Positions 7,827-55,981 of a DNA stretch of 64,000 bases are shown one piece after another. The DNA is from Mobula hypostoma (lineage: Eukaryota). The stretch spans positions 31,250,001-31,314,000 of the forward strand of contig NC_086108.1 in the NCBI RefSeq assembly GCF_963921235.1. The letters run 5' to 3'. Both the position numbers and the translations under genes were made by a program. The notes beneath the pieces are model-generated. The model worked only from the letters and a program-made list of their open reading frames with translations. It made no database searches and had not been told where the DNA came from. Within the stretch, counting starts at the first letter, position 1. Each line of letters begins with the position of its first letter.

Positions 7827-9947
7827 TGTGGAAGGATGTAATAGAGAAATGGAGGTCACTTAAAGGTGAAATTTTGAGGGTACAGAATCTTTATGTTCCT
7901 GTTAGGTTGAAAGGAAAGGTTAAAAGTTTGAGACAGCCATGGTTTTCAAGGGATATTGGAAACTTGGTTGGGAAAAAGAGAGATATCTACAATAAATATA
8001 GGCAGCATGGAATAAATGAAGTGCTCAAGGAATGTCAAAATAATCTTAAGAAAGAAATTAGAAAAGCTAAAAGAAGATATGAGGTTGCTTTTGCAAGTAA
8101 GGTGAAAATAAATCCAGAGGGTTCCTACAGTTATATTAATAGCAAAAGGATAGTGAGGGATAAAATTGGTCGCTGAGAGAATCAGAGTGGACAGCTATGT
8201 GTGGAACCAAAAGAGATGGGGGAGATTTTGAACAATTTCTTTTCTTCGGTATTCACTAAGGAGAAGGACATTGAATTTTGTAAGGTAAGGGAAACAGGTA
8301 GGGAAGTTATGGAAACTATGATGATTAAAGAAGTGGAAGTATTGGAACTTTTAAGGAATATAAAAGTGGATAAGTCTCCGGGTCCTGACAGGATATTCCC
8401 TAGGACCTTGAGGGAAGTTAGTGTGGAAATAGCAGGGGCTCTGACAGAAATATTTCAAATGTCATTAGAAATGGGGATGGTGCTGGAGGATTGATGTAAT
8501 GCTCACGTTGTTCCATTGTTTAAAATGGGTTCTAAGAGTAACCCTAGCAATTATCGAACTGTAAGTTTGACGTCAGTGGTGGGTAAATTAATGGAAAGCA
8601 TTCTTAAAGATGGTATATGTAATTATCTGGATAGACAGGGTCTGATTAGGAACAATCAACATGGATTTGTGTGTGGAAGGTCATGTTTGACAAATCTTAT
8701 TGAATTTTTTGAAGAGGTTACTAGGAAAGTTGATGAGAGTAGAGCGGTGGATGTTGCTATATGGACTTCAGTAAGGCCTTTGACAAGGTTCCACACGGAA
8801 GGTTAGTTAGGAAGGTTCAATCGTTGGATATTAATATTGAAGTAGTAAAGTAGATTCAACAGTGTGGCTGGATGGGAGACGCCAGGGAGTAGTGGTGGAT
8901 AACTGTTTGTCAGGCTGGAGGCCGGTGACTAGTGTTGTGCCTCAGGGATCTGTACTGGGACCAATGTTGTTTGTCATTTACATTAACGATCTGGATGATG
9001 GGGTGGTAAATTGGATGAGTAAGTATGCAGATGATACTAAGATAGGTGGCGTTGTGGATAATGAATCAGGTTTCAAAGCTTGCAGAGAGAGATAGGCCGG
9101 TTAGAAGAGAGGGCTGAAAGATGGCAGATGGAGGTTAATGCTGATAAGTGTGAGGTGCTACATTTTGGTAGGACTAATCAAAATAGGACATACATGGTAA
9201 ATGGTGGGGCATTGAAGAATGCAGTAGAACAGAGGGATCAAGGAATAATGGTGCATAGTTCCCTGAAGGTGGAATCTCATGTGGATAGGGTGGTGAAGAA
9301 AGCTTTTGGTATGCTGGCCTTTATAACTCAGAGCATTGAGTATAGGAGTTGGGATGTAATGTTAAATTTGTACAAGGCATTGGTAAGGCCAAATTTGGAG
9401 TATTGTGTACAGTTCTAGTCACCAAATTACTGTATAGGAAAGCTGTCAACAAAATAGAGAGAGAGTACAGAGTAGATTTACTAGAATGTTACCTAGGTTT
9501 CAGCACCTAATTTATAGAGAAAGGTTGAGAAAGTTGTGTCTTTATTCTTTGGAATGTAGAAGGTTGAGTGGGGTCTTGATAGAGGTATTTAAAATTATGT
9601 GGGGGATAGATAGAGTTGACATGGATAGGCTTTTTTCCATTGAGAGTGGGGGAGATTCAAACAAGAGGACATGAGATGAGAGTTAGCGGGCAAAAGTTTA
9701 GGGGTAAAACGAGGGGGAACTTCTTTCCTCAGAGAGTGGTAGCTGTGTGGAACAAGCTTCCAGTAGAAATGATAGAGACAGATTCAAAATTATCATTTAA
9801 AATAAAATTGGTTAGCTATATGGACAGGACAGGAATAGAGGGTTATGGGCTGAGTGCAGGTCGGTGGAACTAGGTGAGAGTAAACGTCGGCTTGGACTAA
9901 AAGGGCCGAGATGGCCTGTTTCTGTGCTGTAATTGATATATGGTTAC
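7827..9947 (+). mobile_element. 5'-truncated CR1 LINE
   Basis: KSPGPDRIFPRTLRE, VPQGSVLGP, KYADDTK, LVRPNLEYCVQF; tail TATATGGTTA at about 9937-9947. Confidence 0.93.
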
Positions 9948-10501: not shown

Positions 10502-12800
10502 TATAACCATATAACATATAACAATTACAGCACGGAAACAGGCCATCTCGGTCTTTCTAGTCCGTGCTGAACTCTTACTCTCACCCTCACCCAGTCCCAC
10601 TGACCTGCACTCAGCCCAAAACCCTCCATTCCTTTCCTATCCATATATCTATCCAATTTAACTTTAAATGACAACATCGAACCTGCCTCAACCACTTCTG
10701 CTGGAAGCTCGTTCCACACAACTACCACTCTCTGAGTAAAGAAGTTCCCCCTCGTTTTACCCCTAAACTTTCGCCCGCTAACTCTCATCTCATGTTCTCT
10801 TGCTTGAATCTCCCCTACTCTCAATGGAAAAAAGCCTATCCACGTCAACTCTATCTATCCCCCTCATAATTTTAAATACCTCTGTCAAGACCCGCTCAAC
10901 CTTTTACACTCCAAAGAATAAAGACCTAACTTGTTCAACCTTTCTCTGTAACTTAGGAGATGAAACCCAGGCAACATTTTAGTAAATCTCCTCTGTATTC
11001 TCTCAAATTTATTGACATCTTTCCTATAATTCGGTGACCAGAACTGTACACGATACTCCAATTTTGGCCTCACCAATGCCTTATACAATTTCAACATTAC
11101 ATCCTAACTCCTATACTCAATGCTCTGATTTATAAAGGCCAGCATACCAAAAGCATTCTTCACCACCCTATCCACATGAGATTCCAGCTTCAGGGAACTA
11201 TGCACCATTATTCCTAGATCCCTCTGTTCTATTGCATCTTCAATGCCTACCATTTATCATGTATGTCCTATTTTGATTAGTCCTACCAATATGTAGCACC
11301 TCACATTTATCAGTATTAAACTCCATCTGCCATCTTTCAGCCCACTCTTCTACCCGGCCTATCTCTCTCTGCAAGCTTTAAAAACCTACTTCATTATCCA
11401 CAACTCCACCTATCTTAGTATCATCTGCATACTTACTAATCCAATTTACCACCCCATCATCCAGATCATTAATGTATATGACAAACAACATTGGACCCAG
11501 TACAGATCCCTGAGGCACACCACTAGACACCGTCCTCCAATCTGCCACACAGTTATCCACCACTACTCTCTGACGTCTCCCATCCAGCCACTGCTGAATC
11601 CATTTTACTACTTCGATATTAATGCCTAATGATTGAACCTTCCTAACTAATCTTCCGTGTGGAACTTTGTCAAAGGCCTTACTGAAGTCTATATAGACAA
11701 CATCCACCGCTTTACCCTCGTCAACTTTCCTAGTAAACTCTTCAAAAAATTCAATAAGATTTGTCAAACATGACCTTCCACACACAAATCCACGTTGACT
11801 GTTCCTAATCAGACCCTGTCTATCCAGATAATTATATATACCATCTCTAAGAATACTTTCCATCAGTTTATCCACCACTGACGTCAAACTCACAGGCCGA
11901 TAATTGCTAGGTTTACTCTTAGAACCCTTTTTAAACAATGGAACAACATGAGCAATACGCCAATCCTCCGGCACCATCCCAATTTCTAATGACATTTGAA
12001 ATATTTCTGTCAGAGCCCTGCTATTTCCTCACTAAATTCCCTCAAGGATCTAGGGAATATCCTGTCCGGACCCAGAGACTTATCCACTTTTATATTCCTT
12101 AAAAGCACCAGTACTTCCTCTTCTTTAATCGTCATACTTTCCATAACTACTCTTCTTGTTTCCTTTACCTTACACAATTCAATATCCTTCTCCTTAGTGA
12201 ATACCGAAGAAAATAAATTGTTCAAAATCTCCTCCATCTCTTTTCGCTCTGCACATAACCATCCACTCTGATTCTCTAAGGGACCAATTTTATCCCTCAC
12301 TATCCTTTTGCTATTAATATAACTGTAAAAACCCTTTGGATTTATTTTCACCTTACTTGCCAAAGCAGCCTCATATCTTCTTTTAGCTTTTCTAATTTCT
12401 TTCTTAAGATTCTTTTTACGTTCTTTATATTCCTCGAGCACCTCATTTACTCCATGCTGCCTATATTTATTGTAGGTCCCTCTCTTTTTTCGAACCAAGT
12501 TTTCAATATCCCTTAAAAACCATGGCTCTCTCAAACTTTTAACCTTTCCTGTCAACCTAACAGAAACATAAAGATCTTGTACCCTCAGAATTTCACCTTT
12601 AAATGACCTCCTTTTCTCTATTACATCCTTCCCATAAAACAAATTGTCCCAATCCACTCCTTCTAAATCCTTTCGCATCTCCTCAAAGTTAGCCTTTCTG
12701 CAATCAAAAATCTCAACCCCGGGTCCAGTCTTATCCTTCTCCATAGTTATATTGAAACTAATGGCATTGTGATCACTGGACCCGAAGTGCTCCCCAACAC
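10502..12800 (-). mobile_element. 5'-truncated CR1 LINE, same family as 7827-9947
   Basis: ORFs 12010-12900, 11378-11995 and 10885-11097 (HFGSSDHNAI, VPQGSVLGP, KYADDTK); tail (TTATATGG)n at 10502-10522. Confidence 0.95.
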
Positions 12801-25187: not shown

Positions 25188-26224
25188 CCCAGCTACCCAT
25201 CCAACTCAATTTTTCTTTTAAACCAACCCAAGTGCATTCTGTGAAATGACAATTCCAACTTCCTAACTTCACAGGGACTATTATGTTCCACAACACTATT
25301 TCGACATCACTTTACTCTCTTCGTGCAAAATGTTTCTGTCAAGACGGCAGCTGTAACTTTCTGAGAATAAGAAGTTATCGGTTATAATGCAAAATATGAG
25401 TTTGCTTTGTTATGAGAAAAAGGTTTCTGTTGATGGTGTTCAAATGTGTAACATTATTCTGTGGTCTGCTTGCATGCATACTTACACCTTTTTTGTTAAA
25501 AACAGGCATCACTTTTCCTATGCCCTCAGCAATCCCAGTATACATTCTAGCTGGAATACAAAAAGTCAGAGGCACAAATTCCCCCAAAATTTTGAGTGTT
25601 ACATTTTAATGAATATATAATTAATTGTATATGATCTTTTCTGGTAAAGAATAAATTAGTACTGGATCAAGAGAAAGTTAAGCTTCAGTACCACATATTG
25701 CATATTGAGTTGAACAAATTAATTTTCTAAAAAGAAATGATTGTTACTTCTACAGACTACCCCTGGCATTAATGGGGGGAAAAAAAGTACATGACTCTAT
25801 GATTTTAAGAGAATTTGAACTCTCTGCTGTATTAGTCTTTGTCATTGTTGGAATGGGTAATGCATGGAATTTTAATGAGTCACTGCTATAGTTAGCCTGC
25901 CTTTGACAAGATATAACTTGAAACTGATATCATGTGCTTACATATTATGGTCAAAAGGAGGTTATTCAACTCATTGAACTCAGTGAAATCATTCTTCTCA
26001 TAAACCTGTCCCCCTGCCATTTATAGCTTTTGTTTATTTCTCTTTTATTCCTTTACCACTAAGTGGTAGCTTACAGCAATCAATTTACATGCAGCACCTT
26101 TTTGGCATGGAGCATTGAGTCATACAACACAGAAACCGGCCCTTTCGCCTAAATGTGTTACGCCAACTAAGATCCCTATCTTAATCTAGTTCCAGTTACC
26201 CGGCCTGGCCCACACCCTTCTTAA

Positions 26225-26920
26225 CAATGTTGCTGAGCAGAGAGATCTTGGGGTCCAAGTTCATAGTTCCATGAAAGTGGTTACACATCTCGATGGGGTG
26301 GTTGAAAGGCTGATGGAATGCTTGCTTTAAACAGTCAAGGCATTAAGTTGAAAAATCAAGAGGTTATGTTGCACCTTTATAAACATCTGGTTAGGCCACA
26401 GCTGCAGTATTGCATACAGTTCCGGTCACCCACTGTGGGAAGAATGTTGAGGTTTTGGAGAGGGTGCAGAAGAATTTTGCCAGAATGCTGCCTGGTTTTG
26501 ACGGCATGTGCTATCATAAGAGGCTGAAGAAACTTGGGTTGTATTCTTCGGTGTGGCAGAGGCTGAGGGGAGATCTGTTAGAGGTTTATACGATTGTGAG
26601 AAGCTTAGATTGAGTAGACAGGGAGTATCGTTTTCTCTGGGTAGAAATGTCCAGTACCAGAGGGCATGCATTGAAGGTGAGAGGGGTTAGGTTCAAAGGA
26701 GATGTGAGGGGTAAGTTTTCATGGGTGCCTGGTATGGTTGTAGAGGCAAATGCATTAGAAAGGATTTTAAGATATAATGGATAGGCATTTGGATGTGGAC
26801 ATTGGGTAGGTAAGAGGGATTAGTTTTTGGGGGTTATGATTTATATTTTAGCTAGTTCAGCGCAACATCGTAGGCTGAAGAGCCCACTTTTGTGCTGCAA
26901 TATTCTATGTTTTATGTTCT
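26225..26920 (+). mobile_element. CR1 3' fragment (duplicated at about 53290-53985)
   Basis: LYKHLVRPQLQYCIQF, LERVQKNFARMLPG; TTCTATGT tail. Confidence 0.85.
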
Positions 26921-27513
26921 AAATCTCTTCTGTCTCTGTGCCTGTCAAAGTAATTTAAAATCTTATTTATGTATCCATCTCAACCACTTCGTCTGGGAGC
27001 TCATTTCATATATGGAACACCACCACCTCCGCGCCCCCCAGGTTTCTGTAAAATCCCTCCCCCCTCACCTTAATCCTATGTTCTCTAGTTCATGATTTCT
27101 CAGCCCTTGGGGGAACGATTGTGGACATTGATCCTTTCTATGGTCCTCATGATTTTACACACTGCTATAATATTGCCCCTCATTCTCCTGTGGTCCAATG
27201 AGAAAAGTTCCAATCTGCTCAAGCTCTTTCCATGACTCAAGTCCTTCAAGTCCTGACCATATCCTCATAAATCTCCTTTATATTCCTCTTGGGATGAGGA
27301 GGATAATGGAAAAACCTGGGCAGAACCAACACAGGTGATAGAGAGAATGTGAAAAATCCATCCCCATTCCTGTGTGGCTGCAGTGTTACCTGCTGGACTA
27401 CCATATCTCAGCCTTGTGGCAACATATTGTAGTTTATGCTGTTAGAGTATATTGATTACCTGTCTGTCAGTGAATGAGTAAGTGAGTAGGAAAAGAATGA
27501 ACAATGATAGAAG

Positions 27514-28723
27514 TTTCTGCCCTCCTTAGAGTTGACTATCATGCTTTTAGTTCTGGCTGCAAGATGTTGATTCTTTGTCTTTTCTCCATGGTTGGTTTTC
27601 TTCACTATTTCTTCAGTTGCCGTCTCTCCTTCATGAGGCCCTCTATCTCCTTTTGTCTTCTTGATTTGGACTGTGCTGGCAGCTTTGATTTAATTATTTC
27701 CCCCACTCCAAATCTTTCCGCTCCATAGTTGTAAATGAGGTCACCCATCCTCTCATTATCTTCCTAACTGTGTCCTTCAGCCCACTGAGGAATCTGCTTA
27801 GATCCTTGCCAACCGTTGCCCATTCTTTCTTGTTGAAGGTTTTTAGCCATTTCACAAGTCGCTTTTTCACCTGCAGCTTCTATTGTGCTGGCTGTCCTTG
27901 TCTATCCTGTGAGGAGTGGTCTTCACTGTCCTTGTCTATCCTGTGAGGAGTGGTCTTCACTGTCCTTGTCTATCCTGTGAGGAGTGGTCTTCACTGTCCT
28001 TGTCTATCCTGTGAGGAGTGGTCTTCACTGTCCTTGTCTATCCTGTGAGGAGTGGTCTTCAGTGCTGATGCGCACCTCTGAGACCGCACCTGGGTCACTG
28101 ATGCTCTGCAGACTTTGGGTTCCATCGTGCCACTGAACTTCATTTGACTTACTCGTGCTTTCCTCAAGAAATACTGGTTGATGCAAGGTCCCAGCCTTGT
28201 CTCCATCAAGCACTTCATCTTGCCCTGGTGTATCTTCAAGCCCCTAGCTGATGTTACTTTGGACCAGTCACAGATGCAACTCTGGAGTATGCTTCCTGCT
28301 GGTGTCACTGACTCGAGTACTATACTGCCTATGTTTCTCATAGTCAAAGTCATGCCATGCTCTGTTACCAGAATATCCATCCTTGAGTCATCTTGTGCCC
28401 TCTTGTGCCCCAACTCTCACTGACTCTGGGAGTATCTTTCTTTTTTGTAGTTATTGTAGCTATCAGTGGTTGAACCTTATATGTTACTTAGGCAAGAGGA
28501 GTCTGCTGCCATGGGTAGCTGGCCCATGGCAACCCCAATGGGGTCTTTCTCTCCTGTCATCTGATTTCCAGGATGTCACCAGGACTCTCCCTGGTTGTCA
28601 GCTGCTCTCTCACAGCAGTCACTGATGAATCAGATTTATAGTTTGACCTCATAAGACTAGATGTTTCAATCCCCTTGTTAAGCAGATCCTAACTCGGGTC
28701 ACAGCATAAAGATCTTTAGGGAT
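27514..28723 (-). mobile_element. HERO-like RLE non-LTR retrotransposon, 5' UTR and N-terminal ORF part
   Basis: N-terminal zinc finger CICDWSKVTSARGLKIHQGKMKC, then RLVKW..KEW and SRRQKEIE..ERRQLKK blocks; continuous with the RLE-bearing part once the Gypsy insertion is removed. Confidence 0.75.
27893..28061. repeat. 34-bp VNTR, 5 copies
   Basis: Unit TGTCCTTGTCTATCCTGTGAGGAGTGGTCTTCAC starting at 27893, 27927, 27961, 27995 and 28029. Confidence 0.97.
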
Positions 28724-29564
28724 TGTTACATACCTCGGAACTGGGTTGCCAAACCAGCAGAAATGGATCACTCAGTTGGAGTCTGGATTACTAGAACTAA
28801 GAAAGTTTTATTAAAGAAACAAGCAACACAGTAATCGAAAGGATAATAAATGCAACAGTTCAGCAATGATAAACACACATGTGCACAGAATTAAGATAAC
28901 AGCATCAATCAAGCTCTATCGTTGTCTAGGGGTAAGTGACCAAATTTCAAAGTGACACAAAAGTTCAGTCCAATTTAGTTCAGTTCGCAGTAATCGTTGC
29001 CATGGCGATGGACAACGTGGGGGGAGGGAGAGAGAGAACGGGAACGACTGATCATTCAGAAACGGCTTCCACTCACAGACCGGCGAGATTGCTCACAAGC
29101 AGCTTCCGGGTGGGTCCTTTGTGATGTCACCTGAGGTCACCGACTGTGACCCCTCTTCCAGATGCGGTCGATCCTCTGCAGTGAACCTGGCACCCAAGCG
29201 AGGGCGGACACACACCGGGTTCCCGCTGATCGTACCTTTCCACCCTGTGCGTTGTCCGATACTTCCCACCGACTTGTGAGAGGCGCACCGCTTCCAGGGT
29301 CTCGTTACCTCGGGTGTCGTGTGTGTCCTGCTTTAGCGAACCTGTCCCTTTTTATCCCCCTGCTGGGGCATCGCCTGTCCATCACTTCAAACAGTTCAGG
29401 GTTCAAAGGGGGAGCCGCTCCAGACAGCTCTCTCTCCCGTCCCTTCAGTACACATCTCCAAATGCTGCTTCATTGTTCCTTATCTCTCTCTTGAAGACAG
29501 GTGGCAGACCAACTGCTGATCACACAGGACTGCTAACATCTTATCTATGTGTATTCTTGTCACA
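28724..29564 (-). repeat. 3' LTR
   Basis: TGTTACA...TGTCACA; adjacent PPT on the minus strand (TTAAAGGGGGGAAG, 29565-29578). Confidence 0.95.
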
Positions 29565-29689
29565 CTTCCCCCCTTTAAGGATTTTTACCGGGAGGTAAAA
29601 ATTACAAACATGAATACATTAGTTGATACACACACAAATATACATCTTTATCAGCTATTTGGCTAATACAGAGAATTTGAAGTTGTCAA

Positions 29690-30196
29690 CACCTTGACAG
29701 GCAGTCATCACATTTTCTGTTCCTTTTATATGTGTTATTAATAATCCCTTAGACCAGACTCCAACTCAGCAAACTTCATAGTGGCCAAAAACACTGATGA
29801 ATTGCGATCAATGTAAACTCTCATTTGGTTCCGTCCCGGACCACAATAACAAGGGTCGTCCCATTCCGACTCCGGTTTCTCTCGCAAGGGCATAGTAGGA
29901 GGGGGAGGGGTAGTGACCGCAGAGTTATTGCAAAACTTCCTACAGTACCCCACCATCTCCAAGAGCCTTCTGAGGGCCCTGTTGTCTGTCGGGGTTGGGA
30001 GGTCAGCGATCGCCTGCACTGTAGCTTGCATCGCTGCCAGCTGCCCCTGTGTCACCACAATTCCCAGGTAAGTGACCTTCGCATGGCCGAACTCATTTTT
30101 TTCAAGGTTCACTATCAAGCTGGCTTCAGACAGCCGTACTAAATTGCCAATACACACCTCTGTGTTCATCAGCCCTTTAATCACTGAATTACTCAT
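29690..30196 (-). pseudogene. RT C-terminal and RNase H remnants of the Gypsy element
   Basis: RLSEASLIVNLEKNEFGHAKVTYLG..ALRRLLEMVGYCRKF and HIKGTENV; no YxDD core. Confidence 0.8.
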
Positions 30197-30220
30197 TATA
30201 TATGGTTGTTGTTTACTAGG

Positions 30221-32690
30221 CTAGCCTATTGTAACAGACATCACCCAACGTCCCAGTTCTTTGCATTGCCTCGGGACAATCAACCACACGGGTGCGAGTC
30301 GTTTAATTACTCCTAAAGAGTCGCTTTGTTCGGGGATTAAGGGAGAGACCTTATCAGTAGACCTGGCCAAAACAATAGCCTTCTCCCATCTGATCGATCC
30401 CATACTAATCTTTTCAAAATGGTTCTTTTTTTCTCTTATCAGGGGGCCCCTAGCTTCATTGATTTCCACGCTAACACCGACTAGGTTTGTTAGCATATCA
30501 AAAGCTGGTGACCGTCTCAGTACGCGTCGGTCATGATCAATAACATTCTTCCCACTGGGCAGCCGGTAAACCTCTTTCATGATTCCACCAACTGTTTCCT
30601 CCAGCACCGCAAAATGTCCACCGGGGGGTACCTCGTGGGCCATGTTAAAAGCCTCATCCCCATAACTCTTTTGCACCACCCCCCACTCCTCATCAGTGGG
30701 CACGGTACTTGGTCTCCCTTTCTTCCTTAGCACTTCCTCCTCTGCACAATAGCTTACTAGTTCCCTTGTTAAAGCTGGGTCAGAGAGAGCTGTCTCTGCC
30801 AAAACCATCAGCCCCTCGTCTCGCTCCTGCGTCTGCACAAATTCTTTCCTGGCTACTGCTACGTCTGCCCCAGCTCCCTCACTACCTCTTGTCTCACGAC
30901 ACTCCTTCTTTTCATTTTCTACCCCCGTCTCGCACAAGGTTGGCAGAAACGTTTCAGCTAAATTTACCATTGCAGTTAAATTCACTACCGCAGCCCCATG
31001 ATGAACCTGTGAGTCCATGGGCGGGGCCTCACAGCTGGCAGGCTGACCTGTCAATCTCACGACTGGGAACACGATTCCTCCGGCGATGTCATTACCGAGC
31101 AAGACTTCCACGCCTTTCATCGGTAATTCGGACCTCACCCCGATCGTGACTAGTCCAGAGACCAGGTTGCTTTGTAAGTGTATCTGGTGCAAAGGGACTG
31201 ACTCTGTCCCTTCCCCAACACCTTTGACCTCTACCTCCCCAGTCTGGGTCTCTGAGCTAAACACTAATACACTCTTCAGTATTAGTGACTGACACGCTCC
31301 CGTATCTCTCCAGATCCGCACTGGAACTGGTTTTAACCCCTCCTTCACTGACACCAATCCGGCCGAGATAAACTTCTCGCGCCCTTCCTGAACTTTGGCA
31401 GACCTGACCGTCCCTAGCGGTTCGCTTAACAGCTCGATACAGCCATTCAAAATCGCTGTTTTTCCTTTTCCCGTCTCCTCCTTTGGAGCAAAGCACCTGG
31501 ACGCAAAGTGTCCGGCTTTCCCACAATTATAACAGATGACCCCAGGAGACTTCCTGCCAGACTGCTCCCAGTCTACCTTATCCTTCTCACTAGTCCCCGG
31601 CTTACTTTCTGACTTTTCCGGCGGACTCTCCCCGCCGTCCTGACTACCCTTCTGGTAGCCTTTACTCGGGGAAAACTTCATTTTATGCGTCAACGCATAC
31701 TCATCCGCTAACTTAGCAGTTGCGGCTAACGTGGCTGCCTCTTTCTCATCGAGGTAGGGTCTCATACCCTCACGGACACAACCTTTAAACTGCTCAATCA
31801 GGATCAGCTGTAGCAGTCTGTCATAATCTCCCTCTACCCCCTTGAGGCGCACCAATGCTCACAATATGTCTGCATCTCACGGGCAAACTCCAAATACGTG
31901 CGGTCCCACTGCTTCCTCGCATTCCGGAACCTCTGCCGGTATGCCTCCGGGACCAACTCATAAATCCTGAGGATGGCCTCTTTTACCACCTCATACCTCT
32001 GGGCATCTTCCGCGGACAAAGCGGAGTAAGCTTCTTAGGCTTTCCCTTTCAGTACACTCTGAAGTAACACAGCCCACTTATCCCTCGGCCATTCCTGACT
32101 TATAACCACTTTTTCGAAATGGAGAAAGTACCGATCCACGTCGGTATCGTCAAATGGGGGAACCAGCCTAACCTCCTGGGTCGCCCGGAACCCTCCACCT
32201 TGGTTCAGCACGAGCCCCTGCTCGGCCCTTATCTTTAATTTCTCCAGCTCAAATTCCCTTTCCCTCTGTTTCCCTCTCTCTTCTCGCTCCCATTGCCTCT
32301 CTTTCTCCTCTCTCTCCAACTGTCTCTCTCTCTCTTTCTCTTCTCTCTCCAACTGTCTCTCTCTCTCTTGTCTTTCTACCTCTCTCTCCTTCTCTTCTTG
32401 CCCCAACTGTCGTACCTGGAACTCATGCTCGAGTCTCAGTTTTTCAAGCTGTACCTGTACCGCGTCTCCAGCAGGTTTTTCAATAGACACCACCCCCAGC
32501 TCGCCTTGGGGAAACACACCCTTAGATACATAGTGCTCTACAATAGCTCTGTGTATCTCCTCTCCCCCATTGTCGACTTCACCTTAGCAAGATTCAACCG
32601 TTTGGCCGCAGCTACCAATTCCAATTTCCTGGCATCCTCTAATGCCTCCAAGGTCGGCGCCTTTATAAATTCCTCAGCCTCCATTTCTGC
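30221..32690 (-). pseudogene. gag-protease-(integrase remnant) of the Gmr1-like element, broken by a stop and a frameshift
   Basis: Coiled-coil ERE repeats; SCAN-like YEVVKEAILRIYELVPEAYRQRFR..ILIEQF..AKLADEY; CCHC knuckle CYNCGKAGHFASRC; protease RDTGA; integrase Zn-site remnant AHEVPPGGH. Confidence 0.85.
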
Positions 32691-32760
32691 TGTTTGTCTT
32701 TTCTTTCTTTCGGAAATTTTAACCCAATCAATTTACTCCGTCCCAAATTTAGCGTTCAAA

Positions 32761-32779
32761 ATCGCGGACGAGAACCCCA
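32761..32779 (-). promoter_or_regulatory. Primer-binding site, tRNA-Pro-like
   Basis: Minus strand TGGGGTTCTCGTCCGCGAT versus the tRNA-Pro-type PBS TGGGGGCTCGTCCGGGAT, 4 nt inside the LTR. Confidence 0.8.
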
Positions 32780-32783
32780 CTTA

Positions 32784-33628
32784 TGTTACGTACCCCGTAA
32801 CTGGGTTGCCAAACCAGCAGAAATGGATCATTCAGTTGGAGTCTGGATTACTAGAACTAAGAAAGTTTTATTAAAGAAACAAGCAACACAGTAATCGAAA
32901 GGATAATAAATGCAACAGTTCAGCAATGATAACCACACATGTGCACAGAATTAAGATAACAGCATCAATCAAGCTCTATTGTTGTCTAGGGGTAAGTGAC
33001 CAAATTTCAAAGTGACACAAAAGTTCAGTCCAATTTAGTTCAGTTCGCAGTAATCGTTGCCATGGCGATGGACAACGTAGGGGGAGGGAGAGAGAGAACG
33101 GGAACGACTGATCATTCAGAAACGGCTTCCACTCACAGACCGGCGAGATTGCTCACAAGCAGCTTTCGGGTGGGTCCTTTGTGATGTCACCTGAGGTCAC
33201 CGACTGTGACCCCTCCTCCAGATGCGGTCGATCCTCTGCAGTGAACCCGGCACCCAAGCAAGGGCGGACACACACCAGGTTCCCGCTGACCGTACCTTTC
33301 CACCCTGTGCGTTTAAGGCCCGATACTTCCCACCGACTCGTGAGAGGCGCACCGCTTCCAGGGTCTCGTTACCTCGGGTGTCGTGTGTGTCCTGCCTTAG
33401 CGAACCTGTCCCTTTTTATCCCCCTGCTGGGGCATCGCCTGTCCATCACTTCAAACAGTTCAGGGTTCAAAGGGGGAGCCGCTCCAGACAGCTCTCTCTC
33501 CCGTCCCTTCATTACACATCTCCAAATGCTGCTTCATTGTTCCTTATCTCTCTCTTGAAGACAGGTGGCAGACCAACTGCTGATCACACAGGACAGCTAA
33601 CATCTTATCTATGTATATTCTTGTCACA
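32784..33628 (-). repeat. 5' LTR
   Basis: TGTTACG...TGTCACA; highly similar to 28724-29564. Confidence 0.95.
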
Positions 33629-33652: not shown

Positions 33653-33747
33653 AGTCCTGACGAAGGGTTCCGGCCTGAAACATCGACCGATCTTTTCCAC
33701 GGATGCTGCCCGACCTGCTGAGTTCTTCCAGCACATTGTGAGTGTTG
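33653..33747 (+). mobile_element. Short Penelope terminal-repeat fragment carrying a decayed minimal hammerhead
   Basis: AGTC-CTGACGA-AGGGTTCCGGCCT-GAAAC-ATC-GACC followed by GATGCTGCCCGACCTGCTGAGTTCTTCCAGCA; flanked by duplicated GATCTTAAG. Confidence 0.75.
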
Positions 33748-35380
33748 ATCTTAAGATAGGACTTGATGAGTGACAGATGCTTCTCAGGGGTCATCAGATG
33801 GGCACCCCACTTCTTAGATGTTTCATCAGTTTAACCCATTACATCACCAGAAGGCTCAACAGTGCGGCCCAGCATCTGAGGTGCAGCCCCCTTTCACTTC
33901 TGGCCCACCCATGGGTCATTATAGGGCCCGGCTGCCATCACTCCTCTTCATCCATAACCAGTGGCTACTCCGCTTGGCTACCTCCGAGAGGTCTTTCATA
34001 ACACGCCACTGGCCCTGGCCTCATAATCCCAATCCCTTCAGCAATCTGACCATGGAGGCAGCCACAAATCCTCGGCAGCCAACACCTACTGAGAAACTCT
34101 GCACCTTCCATCCACGCTGCTTAGCATCTGCGGCCAGCTCAGCGTATCTCAGGTATTTCTGCTCATACTCCTCGTAGACTGCAACTTCCCAGGGCACAGT
34201 GAGCTCTGAGATTACTGCAGCCTTTAGACTGCTGGACTGCAAGACCAAATCTGGTCTAAGGATGGTAGTGGCTATCTCTGGGGAATATATTAGCCTTTTG
34301 GCAAGGTCAACAGTCATGAGCACGCTCCAGTATGCCTGACACCAACTGTGTCAGTGAGGGTGGCACTGTCTGTCCTTGCTGCACAAAGGTGATGGTTGTT
34401 CTTCCACTCATATGGGGCTTAGAGTGCTATTCAGCCTTTACTTCTCCACAATGGATGCCAAACGTCTGAGGACCTAGTTGTGCCTCCATGCGTATCTTCC
34501 TTGAGTGAGGCTTACTTTGCAAGATGAGAGGATGTGCTTGAGGTTTGCTGTTCTTCCACAGAGTGGGCAAGCTGGGTCTTCACTGAGCCACTGGTTCAGA
34601 TCTTTGGGAGTTGGGAGAACATCATAAACAGCTCTTTTAAGGAAGCTGATCTTTCTTCCTTCCTTTTTCCGTCAGTCTTTCCCGCTGAATTTTCTCTTCT
34701 CAGTGTTTTCCCAACTTGTCCACTGCCCTGTTTTGCCTGAGACACTGCTCTTGCATACCTCATCTGTTCCTGTCGCTGTACGTCCTCCACCACCATGCTC
34801 ACCTTTGCTTTTGTGTTGTCGCCTTTTGCCAAATAGGCTTATTTGAGCCTGCGCCAAAGCCCCATCCTCCAGATTGCATCTGGCCCACCATGTCTGCAAA
34901 CCTGATGCAGCTTTTGCCTGTTTTCCTGACTCTACTGGACACCACTTTCTCCCTGTTAAGGTCCTGGGTGCAATATCCTGGACAACACTGTCATGAGATT
35001 CAGAGAAAGTCATCTCAAGCCTCACCTTGGCACACTTGGAACTCTTCAGTCAGCCCCGTGACAGGCAACTCCAGAGCTCCTTTGCCATACAGGTAGATGT
35101 ATCTTAGCGATCTTGGCAGACCCATCCACTTCTTAATGAAGGAACTAACTGTCCTCTCCAGCTTTTCAACATGAGTGATGGGGACTTCATACAGACTCAG
35201 TGGCCACAACACCTGAGGGTGCAATCCAAAGTGAAGGCACCAGACCTTGAGGTTCCTTGGCAGCAAGGTCTCATTGATGGCTTTAAGCCCTGCTTCTTTT
35301 CCCAGCAGTTTCACTGGATTTGCATCACTGGTTTATGTTGTACCAATGCCCCAAGCTTTTTAACTGGCATTTCTGACACA
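33748..35380 (-). mobile_element. HERO-like RLE retrotransposon, 3' part (RT C-terminus, CCHC finger, RLE, 3' UTR)
   Basis: LWPLSLYEVPITHVEKLER..KWMGLPRSL; CPLC..HILSSC..GRYAWRHN; RPDLVL..ELTVPWE..YAEL..VGCRGF (PD-(D/E)xK nuclease). Confidence 0.85.
33786..33846 (-). ncRNA. Candidate permuted hammerhead ribozyme in the HERO-like 3' UTR
   Basis: Minus strand GAUGU-A-AUGGG-(10 nt)-GAA-ACAUC-(14 nt)-CCCAU-CUGAUGA-CCCC; GAUGU/ACAUC and AUGGG/CCCAU are perfectly complementary around the core motifs. Confidence 0.5.
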
Positions 35381-36893: not shown

Positions 36894-37560
36894 TCTTCCT
36901 CTTCTTCATGTGCCTTGTGCAGTACACGCTTGGGCGATCATGGCTCTCCACATCGAACGATCCCTCGCAGTGTGAATGATATCTTGCACACTTAAATCTG
37001 TTACTTCTTTCACAGCATCCATATATTTTCTTCTTTGCCTTGCTCTACTGCGTTTCCCAGGCATACGGCCTTATAATGTAAGGCATTCTATTTCTCCCTT
37101 TCTGATGACATGGCCCAGGAATTTAAGTTTTCTCTCATTTAATGTTCTCATTAAAGATCTTTTTGTATGGGCACATTGGAGTACTGTCTCTTTAGCTACC
37201 CTATCTCTATGTGATATTTTCAGCATTCTTCTTAGAAGCAACAGAAATGGTTCTGGTGTTACAGTCCATGTTTCGGAAGCATACAGCAAGATTGACCAGA
37301 TGTAACTTTTCAGTAGCCTAAGCCTTGTTGTCATAGAAATGTGTCTGTTGGTAAAAATGGGTTTCATTTTTTGGAAGTTGGTTTTGGCAATGGCAATTCT
37401 TCTTTTTATTTCTACTTTACTTCTAGCATCTTGTGATATAAAACTACCAAGGTAATTGAAGCTGGTCTTTTGTTCAATCTCCTGGTTACCGATGTACAAT
37501 TGGCAGTTGGGAGTATCCTGCTGTTTTGATATTACCATACATTTCATTTTTTTACAGTTG
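36894..37560 (-). mobile_element. RTE-clade LINE 3' fragment
   Basis: FNYLGSFISQDARSKVEIKRRIAIAK..LLKSYIWSILLYASETWT..RKLKFLGHVIRK; (GAA)n tail at 36894-36907. Confidence 0.85.
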
Positions 37561-39169
37561 TGTGGGTGTATGGGGTGGTTGGGTCCTGACTAAATATCAG
37601 GAAATGCCAATAGTGATTACATAGCTTCTACCACCCAAGACAACTCCACCTAGCCATTACCAAGTGCAAATAAAGCACAAAGGATAAAGAAAGCTATGCT
37701 GTGGATTAAACATTTGTGACTATTTGAGAACATTTTTATTGTGATCTTATGAATATGGATATGTTTCATTTCAGTTTCTGCACATTGTTTTGCAAAACAT
37801 TTTTCAATAGCAAAAATTAAACTGTAAAAAGCAGGTGCTGGAAGTCTAAACTTGAAACAGGAAATGGTGAAAACACACAGCAGACCAGGCAACCAAAACT
37901 GTTAAGTTTTTCTTGCATTTTCTACTCTTACTTTTAAAAATGACTCAGTTCCTTTAAGATTATGCATTTTTGACCATCTCACTATCTTCAAACTCCAGTT
38001 TAAGATTAAGGGCAAAGAAGTGGCTACCTGTAGAAATGTATATGATTTATCGAAAGGCTATTTGAAGTGATCATTTCTAATTGATCTGGATGAGAAAATG
38101 TATTCATTCAAAGCAGATGTGATTTATAATTATTAATCGGCAATATTAACTGAAATAATTTCACTCTAAGATACTTAAGGAGTTTGCTGTTCTGCAAAAC
38201 CTTGACAACTAATCTTTGAAATACATGAAGATTCCAATCCTGATCACATTAAATTTGGACCAGAAATTAAAATTAGGTTCCGCAATGCTTCAAACATCAC
38301 AATAGTGGTGTTTTAAAATATTTTGAGGGCTTGGTTCTGATTCGTAGTTCCATGTATCAATGTTCATCGGAATTATAATTGCTTTAGATTGAAGATGCAA
38401 CATGTTGATGAACAACACTGAGGGGAATGTTTGGGGAAGAGGTAATTTCCTGTGATGTATATAGGTTTATCTCTCCCATGTGCTAAAACTCAAACTAAGT
38501 TATATCGAAACTCTTTCAAGCCTTATGCAGCAACAGATGTTCAACAGATTAACAGATGTTCTTTGCAATACATTCTCTTTGGAAGCCACAGAACAGCAGT
38601 GCTTAAAAGGAAATGATGTCTGCCAAATAAGTTAGATGTGGTTAAATGACAAGGCAAATAGAGAAATATCGTTAGATTTAACATGACTTTGCAAAAAAGG
38701 ACAAATCTTTCTTGTGCTCTCCAAACATTGTTGTAGATTAACAATTACTTATTTACACTCAGGCAACTGAGGCCTGCAATTGCATCAGTGTGCATCACTT
38801 TAATGTCCCACTCATTGTAAGATACTAGGAATCAAGCTGATTACATATTCCATTAGTTTGCTTGACAACAGCTGTGCACAAGAGAACCTTGAACTTTCCC
38901 TTCTAGCTATGCCCCAAATTCACAATGTTCCTTTAGACATGCTCACATGCCTAGGAGCAAATCAAAACCGAGAATCTTTTATGATCACCCTTTCACAGAA
39001 TGTTTGAGTCATCAGAGCCCAAAGGTGCGAAACTGTTTAGATCCTGGTTGGAGGTGATCACTTCTAGAATCATACAGTAAAATAGCACAGAAGTAGTCTC
39101 TTCCCCTGTGATGGTTATTCACTCTCCATAGCCCGAGAAGTATATTGCTGAATTCAACTTTCCAGCACA

Positions 39170-51465: not shown

Positions 51466-53267
51466 GTTTGGGCTCATAGGACTAGTTATTTCAATCCCCT
51501 TGTTAAGCAGGTCCTAACTTAGGTCATAGCTCAGAGATCTTGAGATAGGACTTGGTGGGTGGCAGATGCTTCCCAGGGGTCATCAGGTGAGCACACCCCT
51601 TCTTAGATGTCTCATCAGTTTAACCCATTACATCTCCAGAAGGCTCAACAGTGCGACCCGGCATCCCAGGTGCCACCCATGGGTCATTTTAGGGCCCAGC
51701 TGCCATCACTCCTCTTCATCCGTAACCAGTGGCTGCTCCATTCAGCTACCTCCAGGAGTTCTTTTATAGCTTGCCACGGGCCCTGGCCTCAGACTCCGAT
51801 CTGGTCATGGAAGGAGCCACAAATCCTCGGCAGCCAACCCCTACTGGGGAAATCTGCACCCTCCATCCACACTGCTTAGCATCTGCGGCCAGCTCAGTGT
51901 ATCTTAGGTGTTTCTGCTCATACCCCTCGCAGACTGTATCTTCCCAGGGCACTGTGATCTCTGAGATAACTACAGCTGGACCTCAAGACCAAATCTGGTC
52001 TAAGGATGGTAGTGGCTGTCTCTGGGGGAAATATTAGTCTCTTGTCATGGTTGACAGCCATGTTCCAGTCAGGAGCAGACCTGACACCAACCGTGTTACT
52101 GAGGCTGGCACTGTCTGTCCTTGTAGGACAAAGAGGATGGTGGTTCTTCCACTCATATGGGGCTTAGAGTTGTTATTCAGCCTTTGCTTCTCCACAATTG
52201 ACGCCAAACATCAGAGGAACTAGTTGTGTCTCCATGTATATCTTCCTTGAGTGAGGCTTACTTTGCAAGATGAGAGGACATGCTTGAGGTTTGCTGTTCT
52301 TCCACAGGCTGGGCAAGCTGGGTGTTCACTGAGCCACTGGTTCAGATTTTTGGGAGTTGGGTGAACATCATAAACAGCTCTTTTAAGGAAGCTAATCTCT
52401 CTTCCTTCCTTTTCCCATCAGTCTTTCCAGCTGAATTTCCTTGTGTCAATGTTTTCCCACCTTGTCCACTGTCCCTGTTTTGCCTGAGACACTGCTCTTG
52501 CATACCTCATCTGTTCCTGTCATTGTACGTCCTCCAACACCATAGCTCGCTTTTGCCTTTGTATTGTCGCCTTTTGCCAAATAGGCTTATTTGAGCCTGT
52601 GCCAAGGACCCCTCTTCCAGGTTGCACCTGGACCACCATGTCTGCAAACCTGTGTACTGCTTTTGCCTGTTTTCCTGACTCTACTGGACACCACTTTCTC
52701 CCTATTAAGGTCCTGGGTGCAGTATCCTGGACAACACTGTCACGAGATTCCAAGAGAGTCATCTCAAGCCTCACCTTGGAACAGTTGAACTTTTTAGTCA
52801 GCCCCATGACAGGTAGCTCCAGAGCTCCATTGCCATACTGGTAGATGTTACTTAGTGACCTTGGTAGGCCCATCCACCTCTTAATGAAGGAACTAACTTT
52901 CCTCTCCAGCTTTTCAACATGAGTGATGGGGACTTCATACAGAGTCAGTGGCCACAACACCCAAGGGAGCATTCAGCTTCAGATAATCTTCCAACTCTTC
53001 CTTTGACATCTTAGGAGTTCTATTCTTCTGCTTTGTGAAAATGCTTTTCACAAACTTGTAGGGGTCCAAATAGAATTGTGTTCAAGTGTGTCCTTTCTTC
53101 TTTCATCAAAGCCTGATGTTTTCTGCCCTCCTTAGAGTCGACAATCATGCCTTTGGTTCTGTCTGCAGGATGTTGATTCCTTCTCTTTCCTCCATGGTTG
53201 ATTTACTCCACTGTTTCTTCAGTTGCCATCTGTCGTCATGAGGCCCTCTATCTCCTTTTGTCTTCTT
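51466..53267 (-). mobile_element. HERO-like RLE retrotransposon, second 3' part, with internal deletion near 52970
   Basis: LWPLTLYEVPITHVEKLERK..; PWEDTVCEGYEQKHLRY..VGCRGF; homologous to 33748-35210. Confidence 0.85.
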
Positions 53268-55963
53268 GGCTTGGCCCACACCCTTCTTAACAATGTTGCT
53301 GAGCAGAGAGATCTTGGGGTCCAATTTCATAGCTCCATGAAAGTGGTTACACATCTCGATGGGGTGGTTAAAAGGCTGATGGAATGCTTGCTTTAATCAG
53401 TCAAGGCATTAAGTTGAAAAGCCAAGAGGTTATGTTGCAACTTTATAAGCATCTGGTGAGGCCACAGCTGCAGTATTGCATACAGTACTGGTCACCCACT
53501 GTAGGAAGAATATTGAGGTTTTGGAGAGGGTGCAGAAGAATTTTACCAGAATGCTGCCTGGTTTTGACGGCATGTGCTATCATAAGAGGCTGAAGAAACT
53601 TGGGTTGTATTCTTCGGTGTGACAGAGGCTGAGGGGAGATCTGTTAGAGGTTTATACGATTGTGAGAGGCTTAGATTGAGTAGACAGGGAGTATCGTTTT
53701 CTCTGGGTAGAAATGTCCAGTACCAGAGGGCATGCATTGAAGGTGAGAGGGGTTAGGTTCAAAGGAGATGTGAGGGGTAAGTTTTCATGGGTGCCTGGTA
53801 TGGTTGTAGAGGCAAATGCATTAGAAAGGCTTTTAAGATACAATGGATAGGCATTTGGATGTGGACATTAGGTAGGTAAGAGGGATTAGTTTTTGGGGGT
53901 TATGATTTATTTTTTAGCTAGTTCAGCGCAACATCGTGGGCTGAAGAGCCCATTTTTTTGCTGCAATATTCTATGTTTTGTGTTCTAAATCTCTTCTGTC
54001 TCTGTGCCTGTCAAAGTAATTTAAAATCTTATTTATGTATCCATCTCAACCACTTCGTCTGGGAGCTCATTTCATATATGGAACACCACCACCTCCTCCC
54101 CAGGTTTCTATTAAATCCCTCCCCCCTCACCTTAATCCTATGTTCTCTAGTTCATGATTTCTCAGCCCTTGGGGGAACGATTGTGGACATTGATCCTTTC
54201 TATGGTCCTCATGATTTTACACACTGCTATAATATTGCCCCTCATTCTCCTGTGGTCCAATGAGAAAAGTTCCAATCTGCTCAAGCTCTTTCCATGACTC
54301 AAGTCCTTCAAGTCCTGACCATATCCTCATAAATCTCCTTTATATTCCTCTTGGGATGAGGAGGATAATGGAAAAACCTGGGCAGAACCAATACAGGTGA
54401 TAGAGAGAATGTGAAAAATCCATCCCCATTCCTGTGTGGCTGCAGTGTTACCTGCTGGACTACCATATCTCAGCCTTGTGGCAACATATTGTAGTTTATG
54501 CTGTTAGAGTATATTGATTACCTGTCTGTCAGTGAATGAGTAAGTGAGTAGGAAAAGAATGAACAATGATAGAAGTTTCTGCCCTCCTTAGAGTTGACTA
54601 TCATGCTTTTAGTTCTGGCTGCAAGATGTTGATTCTTTGTCTTTCCTCCATGGTTGATTTTCTTCACTATTTCTTCAGTTGCCGTCTCTCCTTCATGAGG
54701 CCCTCTATCTCCTTTTGTCTTCTTGATTTGGACTGTGCTGGCAGCTTTGATTTAATTATTTCCCCCACTCCAAATCTTTCCGCTCCATAGTTGTAAATGA
54801 GGTCACCCATCCTCTCATTATCTTCCTAACTGTGTCCTTCAGCCCACTGAGGAATCTGCTTAGATCCTTGCCAACCGTTGCCCATTCTTTCTTGTTGAAG
54901 GTTTTTAGCCATTTCACACGTCGCTTTTTCACCTGCAGCTTCTATTGTGCTGGCTGCCCTTGTCTATCCTGTGAGGAGTGGTCTTCACTGTCCTTGTCTA
55001 TCCTGTGAGGAGTGGTCTTCACTGTCCTTGTCTATCCTGTGAGGAGTGGTCTTCACTGCCCTTGTCTATCCTGTGAGGAGTGGTCTTCACTGTCCTTGTC
55101 TATCCTGTGAGGAGTGGTCTTCACTGTCCTTGTCTATCCTGTGAGGAGTGGTCTTCACTGTCCTTGTCTATCCTGTGAGGAGTGGTCTTCACTGCCCTTG
55201 TCTATCCTGTGAGGAGTGGTCTTCACTGTCCTTGTCTATCCTGTGAGGAGTGGTCTTCACTGTCCTTGTCTATCCTGTGAGGAGTGGTCTTCACTGTCCT
55301 TGTCTATCCTGTGAGGAGTGGTCTTCACTGTCCTTGTCTATCCTGTGAGGAGTGGTCTTCAGTGCTGATGCGCACCTCTGAGACCGCACCTGGGTCACTG
55401 ATGCTCTGCAGACTTTGGGTTCCATCGTGCCACTGAACTTCATTTGACTTACTCGTGCTTTCCTCAAGAAATACTGGTTGATGCAAGGTCCCAGCCTTGT
55501 CTCCATCAAGCACTTCATCTTGCCCTGGTGTATCTTCAAGCCCCTAGCTGATGTTACTTTGGACCAGTCACAGATGCAACTCTGGAGTATGCTTCCTGCT
55601 GGTGTCACTGACTCGAGTACTATACTGCCTATGTTTCTCATAGTCAAAGTCATGCCATGCTCTGTTACCAGAATATCCATCCTTGAGTCATCTTGTTCCC
55701 CAACTCTCACTGACTCTGGGGGTATCTTACTTTTTGTAGTTATTGTAGCTATCAGTGGTTGAGCCCTATATGCTACTTAGGCAAGAGGAGTCTGCTGCCA
55801 TGGGTAGCTGACCCATGGCAACCCCAATGGGGTCTTTCCCTCCTGTCATCTCTCTTTTCAGGATGTCACCAGGACTCTCCCTGGTTGTCAACTGCTCTCT
55901 CACAGCAGTCACTGATGAATCAGATTTATAGTTTGAGCTCATAGGACTAGATGTTTCAATCCC
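53268..55963 (+). repeat. Segmental duplication copy 2 (partner 26202-28673)
   Basis: Colinear near-identity; longer mainly because of 7 extra VNTR units. Confidence 0.95.
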
Positions 55964-55981
55964 TTTAATTGGCAGATACTA
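54576..55981 (-). mobile_element. HERO-like element, 5' part (second copy)
   Basis: Same zinc finger and 5' UTR as 27514-28690. Confidence 0.75.
54955..55361. repeat. 34-bp VNTR, 12 copies
   Basis: Same unit as 27893-28061; variant TGCCCTT in units 1, 4 and 8. Confidence 0.97.

Follow-up and report, generated by a model that had tools for sequence, protein, structure and literature searches.

Retrozymes are small non-autonomous elements with circularly permuted hammerheads, and their hammerhead-bounded repeats are copied through circular RNA. Hammerheads are also found in the pseudo-LTRs of Penelope-like elements, where Cervera and de la Pena (2014) described type I, often minimal dimeric motifs in GIY-YIG elements with a telomerase-like reverse transcriptase (RT), together with U3-A8 covariation in the core (PMC4209133). 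R2 and other non-LTR elements carry a different class of ribozyme, HDV-like, at the 5' end of a linear RNA (PMC7650587, PMC13725137). The three classical hammerhead types, I, II and III, as represented by Rfam models, hold the cleavage-site strand (S), the GAAA strand (G) and the CUGAnGA strand (C) in the circular orders CGS, GSC and SCG. Eckert et al. (2023) reported hammerheads of type SGC, HRIMA-1 and its variants, which came from metatranscriptomes and, in the account given there, from none of the genomes of known organisms; in these RNAs stem II directly follows CUGAnGA, an arrangement assumed in that account to be obligatory (PMC10085705). Natural non-circular permutations of the hammerhead had already been reported, as the initial annotation of the present locus stated (PMC10085705).

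The 64,000-nt stretch of Mobula hypostoma DNA analysed here (the window) holds, on its minus strand, a motif with the order S-G-C downstream of a decayed open reading frame (ORF). What remains of this ORF at 33919..35380 (-) is its C-terminal half, interrupted by stop codons and frameshifts and comprising the RT thumb region, a CCHC knuckle and an RLE domain, as recognised by translation, by homologues in fish, sturgeon and lancelet and by blast within the family. The RLE piece matches 75 proteins, the named ones being from teleosts, sturgeon and lancelet; RVT_1 was found in 3/3 tested relatives, and C2H2, CCHC and RPD..ELTVPWE..KY motifs were seen by eye in the ORF, RPD, ELTVPWE and KY lying in the last domain. 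Because the endonuclease part has no match in Pfam or PDB, the RLE label follows from characteristic motifs. The 3' flanks of copies in the same genome differ among themselves except at duplicated loci, a pattern like the non-specific targeting of HERO elements, which mostly have no sequence-specific target (PMC4640811, PMC3636483). The element is an R2-group non-LTR retrotransposon of the putative RLE kind, and HERO is its likely clade.

When the minus strand was re-read, GAUGU (33845-33841), A17 (33840), AUGGG (33839-33835), GAAA (33824-33821), ACAUC (33821-33817), CCCAU (33802-33798), CUGAUGA (33797-33791) and CCCC (33790-33787) were found arranged as in the initial annotation; its order S-G-C, different from that of types I, II and III, was borne out, and its placement of the predicted cut at 33840|33839 was agreed. 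This cut lies 79 nt after the RLE stop TAA (33921-33919), and the copy holds C3 U4 G5 A6 N7 G8 A9, G12 A13 A14, A15.1-U16.1 and H17, the core consensus being used as in PMC7151607. The RNA had been placed at 33846-33786; the core does lie there, but the full fold spans about 33892-33786. A classical stem II had been described as missing, but it is present and pairs with 33860-33856, upstream of the cleavage strand. Likewise, GGGG of the linker had been offered as a possible partner of CCCC, but the partner of CCCC is 33891-33888, and that of the linker is 33855-33849.

Read 5' to 3' on the minus strand, the fold opens with the 5' strand of helix P0, AGGGG (33888..33892), the partner of CCCCU after CUGAUGA according to the sequence and to cognate against non-cognate pairing. 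The hairpin Px (33861..33887), damaged here, leaves no spacer between P0 and stem II and was placed by closure in the clusters described below and by minimum-free-energy (MFE) folding of three subfamily majorities. The displaced 5' strand of stem II follows (33856..33860, with G10.1 at 33860), assigned by cluster pairing and weak in this copy, and then a segment (33846..33855) with the 5' strand of helix P4 (33855-33849) and the k-turn positions 3n/2n/1n, where 1n is U instead of the A of the family majority. Block S (33834..33845), located by sequence, alignment and descriptor, comprises the 5' strand of stem III, the GUA triplet, the predicted cut and the 5' strand of stem I. Block G (33817..33829) comprises the 3' strand of stem II, G12-A13-A14 and the 3' strand of stem III. 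The 3-nt bulge of the k-turn with its GA (33813-33812), assigned from GA pairs in the clusters, and the 3' strand of P4 (33810-33804) occupy 33804..33816; the 3' strand of stem I, C3-U4-G5-A6-U7-G8-A9 and the 3' strand of P0 (33790-33786) complete the fold at 33786..33803, on the evidence of sequence, clusters and alignment. The whole strand order is P0-Px-II-P4-[III-GUH-I]-[II'-GAAA-III']-k-turn-P4'-[I'-CUGAnGA-P0'].

The window copy is an old, decayed insertion that would function poorly if at all. Its core letters are all intact, as in only 10/30 copies of its subfamily; its stem II has 1 Watson-Crick pair, 3 wobbles and 1 mismatch, and the change of the k-turn 1n from A to U is accompanied by the damage to Px. 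Within the genome the core is preserved no better than the tail, as expected of dead copies, and the sign of selection is seen between lineages.

A search of the genome (3.48 Gb) for relatives of the stretch gave 1135 candidates, of which 40, with 79-86% identity, were scored, and the hammerhead core was the family majority among them. Foreign relatives were collected by protein alignment as the best 80 of 245 matches, that is 79 metagenome loci and one genome contig; searching viral contigs with the RLE protein alignment gave none. The single genome contig (L110) belongs to the single-cell genome record of a bacterium, and its RLE element is probably host DNA that contaminated the record. A strict descriptor of the S-G-C core recognised 50/80 foreign loci, against 0/70 reverse strands and 2/195 ORF windows. 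A relaxed descriptor (core plus stems I, II and III, with spacings tuned on the same 80 loci) recognised 60/80, with at most one core change, and placed the motif behind the endonuclease stop in 54 of the 67 loci with at least 250 nt downstream. The same descriptor gave 0 matches in 425 kb of controls (80 reverse-strand loci, 273 kb; 78 ORF stretches, 152 kb), and one match on both strands of the window, at 33840. The motif is real and no product of chance. The original proposal, that the 3' UTR of an RLE non-LTR element holds a hammerhead core, is supported: the core whose conservation was in question is the majority form in the genome family and recurs in foreign lineages only 38-73% identical, where stems I and III covary. 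In 13 of the 67 loci the motif is absent; seven of these look deleted, decayed or interrupted, and the other six belong to two RLE sublineages (L074/L083/L093 and L100/L102/L108) with no trace of it in the 388-1200 nt of downstream DNA searched. These sublineages offer natural controls for whether tandem structure is linked to the ribozyme.

The fold was examined in two ways: 45 perfect-core motifs with their flanks were grouped into 21 clusters, 38-73% alike, and 34 rows were aligned with MAFFT, blind to structure. In the alignment, 95.6% of cells are paired (stem I 98.8%, stem II 92.9%, stem III 95.5%), 14/16 pairs show two-sided, compensatory changes and GAAA is invariant; slid controls gave 36-43% paired, and 0/500 shuffles did as well, a count that is not a probability, the rows being related. 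The canonical place of stem II, directly after A9, shows 0 bp in 19/21 clusters. The five bases preceding GAAA have their partner 20-23 nt upstream of N17, with at least 4 bp in 20/21 clusters, and form 4.95 bp with it against 2.82 with those of other clusters (0/20000 permutations); an unbroken block C, with A9 joined directly to G10.1, was thus not found, the partner being upstream in those 20 of the 21. The bases after CUGAnGA pair with a strand still further upstream to form P0, with 8.8 bp for cognate and 3.9 bp for non-cognate partners (0/20000), and in 17/21 clusters the interval from P0 to stem II is taken up precisely by Px. Since CCCC has its partner there, A9 and G10.1 are separated by a four-way junction that divides the core. 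The arms of this junction would be the core, P0, Px and stem II, opened at A9/G10.1 with stem II still stacked on the core.

The consensus k-turn consists of a canonical helix, a 3-nt bulge, tandem G.A/A.G pairs and a non-canonical helix. Between stem III and P4, both GA pairs and the 3-nt bulge are present in 15/21 clusters, and 3 or 4 of the 4 letters in 19/21; other bulge lengths give both GA pairs in 0-3/21. P4, anchored on this k-turn, has 99/114 cells paired (0/20000). That an ordinary type-SGC hammerhead lies here, with stem II absent or formed by CCCC and the linker GGGG, is hardly credible in view of these pairings. The order S-G-C agrees with it, CCCC and GGGG can pair in the window copy alone, and within 10 positions after A9 cognate partners have a slight advantage (3.2 against 2.5 bp), but the strands after A9 and the linker each covary with other partners, and the lack of base pairs at the canonical position in 19 of the 21 clusters speaks against it; a stem II built from CCCC and the linker was rejected for the same reasons. 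The conserved split-core hammerhead fold is almost certainly real. It departs from the rule that CUGAnGA and stem II are contiguous, as stated in the account of type SGC (PMC10085705). The broken contiguity would explain why descriptor and Rfam searches miss the fold, Rfam having returned no ribozyme family with E<=10 in the 30-40 kb part of the window, nor with E<=5 in the 20 of 80 foreign loci checked.

Compared with type SGC as described by Eckert et al., the element shares the S-G-C order, the double-pseudoknot core, the short linker between stems I and II and a fourth helix tying the sides of stems I and II, whereas its stem II strand and fourth-helix strand lie 5' of block S and not 3' of CUGAnGA, and its RNA resides in animal retrotransposons and not in metatranscriptomes (PMC10085705). 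It also adds the P0/Px four-way junction splitting A9 from G10.1 and the k-turn joining stem III to P4. Ribozymes with a non-circular permutation, until now reported from metatranscriptomes and metagenomes, are here placed in animal genomes, in thousands of copies. With a strand order that was not found in the literature searched, this is a real and new hammerhead architecture that extends across the clade.

Folding programs gave other pictures for single subfamilies. The MFE structure of the window's own subfamily, whose stem II is rich in wobbles, prefers a hairpin sequestering stem I, in a program that cannot model pseudoknots. In subfamilies F1 and F2, the MFE structure lengthens stem II by pairing the strands of P4 and stem I with each other, which gives an inactive alternative that could be a switch or a trap. 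A type III (S-C-G) arrangement would draw on another GAAACAUC, located in the 3' hairpin of F1 and F2, and was rejected because F3 and the foreign families are without it.

k-turns and four-way junctions are typical protein-binding features, and with its core split the RNA might be a non-catalytic scaffold for the RT or for an L7Ae-type k-turn binder, the hammerhead letters being vestigial or coincidental. This is very unlikely, given that lineages 38-73% alike keep every core letter even as their helices turn over, and that the variation follows catalytic constraints. Among the 60 foreign motifs, core positions 3/8 are C-G in 56, U-A in 2 and U-G in 2, and U-A is also found in subfamily F3 of the own genome; G10.1-C11.1 is G-C in 28 of the 34 rows and G-U in 5; and position 17 is never G, although H17 is imposed by the descriptor. 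We hold that the split-core hammerhead very probably cleaves itself after GUH. The phosphate of A9 and G10.1 form a metal site (PMC7151607), and the break in the backbone at A9/G10.1 could impair catalysis.

The initial annotation proposed that the element cuts itself in order to define the ends of its RNA. The insertion pattern requires a modified form of this: ordinary copies end about +165, +159 and +152 past the cut in the three subfamilies, without poly(A), and 87/90 copies span the cut, with an indel within 4 nt of it in 1/87. From insertions that read through the cut it follows that the copied template was continuous across the site. In the window, the ORF half (35380-33919) is followed by the ribozyme, a split tail, a spacer, the 5' UTR at 28632 and the start of the ORF. 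The first part of the 3' tail (33747..33785) breaks off at 33747, where a short repeat and an LTR element were inserted later, and the remainder of the tail (28633..28720), identified by family comparison, includes a terminal hairpin and the usual end of insertions (~28641), and runs into the conserved spacer. At 27514..28632 the same element's 5' UTR and ORF N-terminus, with a decayed C2H2 finger, complete a head-to-tail junction, as family comparison and translation indicate. Another 3' half lies at 51466..52974 (-); its ribozyme (~51.6 kb) is decayed but its 3' end is normal, and it has 16 private variants in common with the half at 33.8 kb, others having at most 5.7.

Tandems of this kind are seen elsewhere. 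In 14 of the 57 foreign loci with at least 500 nt downstream, the ribozyme runs on into the element's 5' UTR and ORF N-terminus, and three of the ORFs downstream carry RVT_1. The two sides of foreign tandem contigs overlap with 67% (L066, over 2.6 kb), 90%, 93% and 96% identity, and because they differ, some of these contigs are mosaics or joins of different elements; L066 itself may be an assembly mosaic or a jump between RNAs. Because short-read contigs can be mosaics and the halves of L066 are so unlike, the assembled genome was tested. There, 5' UTR copies were kept from 12/30, 30/30 and 14/30 loci of the three subfamilies, 56 in all, the rest being partial or from other subfamilies, and 46/56 are preceded by a 5'-truncated piece of the element's own 3' end, with a fixed spacer of 15-18 nt between. 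The boundaries of these 46 pieces are spread between +131 and positions beyond -499, with 26 pieces running across the cut and 0/46 boundaries within 5 nt of it. There are thus copies longer than one unit, which extend back from the 5' UTR by way of the tail and the cut site into the end of the ORF. Among the own-genome copies no short insertion was found to begin at the cut, the lowest short-copy boundaries being -8 to -22. Ordinary 3' ends match at least two further bases of the spacer in 14/53 copies, where 2.7 would be expected. Upstream and downstream repeats differ in 5/897 majority columns, while subfamilies are 60-73% identical. Across 12 loci, the two ends of one locus have 28 non-CpG private variants in common, against 7.2 expected from other copies (the comparators being top-scoring matches), and none in 3/12; the overall identity of the two ends is not clearly above that between loci. 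Gene conversion could also explain these common variants. Taken together, the sequences show a fixed internal 3' end and a template that is unbroken at the cut as well as at the tail/5' UTR junction.

A small hairpin stands just before the fixed 3' end (28650-28675, minus strand). It occurs in each of the three own subfamilies, was also seen by eye in foreign families, and may position priming. A second conserved motif opens the 5' UTR (28560-28632, minus strand): CAGUGAC, a hairpin with a GAAAGA-like loop, and UGACAAC, in 2-3 repeats. It is also found downstream of the ribozyme in L060, L064, L066, L071, L072, L088 and L104, and is possibly an RT-binding, promoter or translation element.

A continuous template could be supplied by a circle. 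Where the ORF of a locus is flanked by two ribozymes, transcription would run through both, and two cuts would release a unit RNA. In the predicted pairing, the ends of such an RNA are held by a median of 27 bp (P0, II, P4 and III together), and because they would stay paired by ~27 bp, ligation by the ribozyme or by a host RtcB-type ligase would be favoured. The element's RT would prime at a fixed internal site on the circle and, on sometimes running for more than one turn, would regenerate an upstream ribozyme. The formation of a unit-length, covalently closed circle by re-ligation is, from these data, probable, and the same confidence, somewhat better than even but well short of certainty, applies to the reading as a whole: a conserved split-core fold that likely cleaves itself, an RNA probably re-ligated to a circle, and the circle as the template for insertion.

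The RT of R2 can jump from one template to another, and the ribozyme might cut without ligation, the paired ends then forming a nicked pseudo-circle whose nick is jumped by the RT. The ~27 bp would hold the two products together, template continuity fits equally well, and one copy joins mid-ORF sequence to the cut site, but 5' ends do not pile up at the cut, and jumps would be expected to leave scars, yet an indel was found in a single one of the spanning copies. We regard this as unlikely. Mid-ORF sequence is joined to the cut site in L130 and L151, in L130 through a short microhomology, and L166 seems by eye to begin at about the cut.

It is quite unlikely that the template is an uncut read-through of a complete or partial tandem, in which the ribozyme cuts a fraction of the RNAs for mRNA release or for cap-independent translation of the ORF ~350-400 nt downstream, while gene conversion or end-to-end jumps homogenise the repeats. 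The RT plainly reads across the cut site, L066 joins two elements only 67% alike, and self-cleavage can drive cap-independent translation, as HDV-like ribozymes do in non-LTR elements (PMC13725137); a role in translation can, however, be reconciled with the circle. Ordinary 3' ends extend into the spacer, so the template does not stop at the priming site, and this calls for a circle or for at least two whole units; no locus with two or more whole units was found in 21 long stretches compared with themselves. Redundancy would, moreover, erode with each generation, but it is kept in three subfamilies with matching ends.

The circular template, as preferred here, brings the element close to Penelope-like elements, which also have the ribozyme within terminal direct repeats, partial head-to-tail tandems and the U3-A8 core variant, and for which cleavage, a circle and reverse transcription beyond one unit are proposals as they are here (PMC4209133). 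The difference lies in an RLE LINE with a monomeric, pseudoknotted split-core fold. With the R2 systems the element has in common its R2-group affiliation and, as predicted here, the processing of RNA from a longer transcript and possibly an effect on translation (PMC7650587, PMC13725137). In contrast to the R2 HDV-like ribozymes, the one described here is located 50-200 nt downstream of the stop codon, and its cut is read through by insertions. With respect to retrozymes, the element is an autonomous unit of ~3.5-5 kb with a non-circularly ordered core, and its circle is proposed here. In the full-text literature searched, outside which most subscription journals and Repbase Reports lie, HERO or RLE elements were not connected in any paper with a hammerhead, a circle or a tandem structure. 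Our results suggest that a clade of R2-group LINEs may be copied from an internal site on a circle and not from the 3' end of a linear RNA, giving Penelope-like partial tandems. The odds seem to us slightly in favour of the broadest claim, namely an architecture outside the six block orders, its core opened by a four-way junction, with a k-turn scaffold and cut ends clamped for ligation, in an autonomous R2-group LINE clade that would replicate by rolling circle through a protein-coding circular RNA primed internally. The circle model for ribozyme-bearing retroelements becomes testable with an RNA of ~115 nt, and a self-clamping, possibly self-circularising ribozyme paired with an RT would be of interest for the production of circular RNA and for R2-type gene insertion.

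The surroundings of the element have been altered by later events. The short repeat in the tail (33653-33747, minus strand), inserted 92 nt after the cut, has an extremely high copy number and would be a SINE or a LINE tail. The LTR element (28724-33628, minus strand) has 845-bp terminal repeats that are 97.3% identical, with TG..CA ends, a 4-bp target duplication and a gag-like ORF with a zinc knuckle (30221-31858). The block 28691-26202 is duplicated at 55981-53268 with 96-98% identity, much younger than the element, so the locus was rearranged later; the duplicated blocks (26202-28691 and 53268-55981) take in 1.3 kb of other DNA besides the 5' UTR, the beginning of the ORF and a 34-bp tandem array. 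Upstream of the element, at 36910-37600 (-), a different LINE has left a decayed RT fragment, and an inverted repeat pair of 2.1 kb with 90% identity occupies window positions 7830-9942 and 10515-12632. A DNA contig from a sequencing run of organism B covers 33704-34122 with 13 differences.
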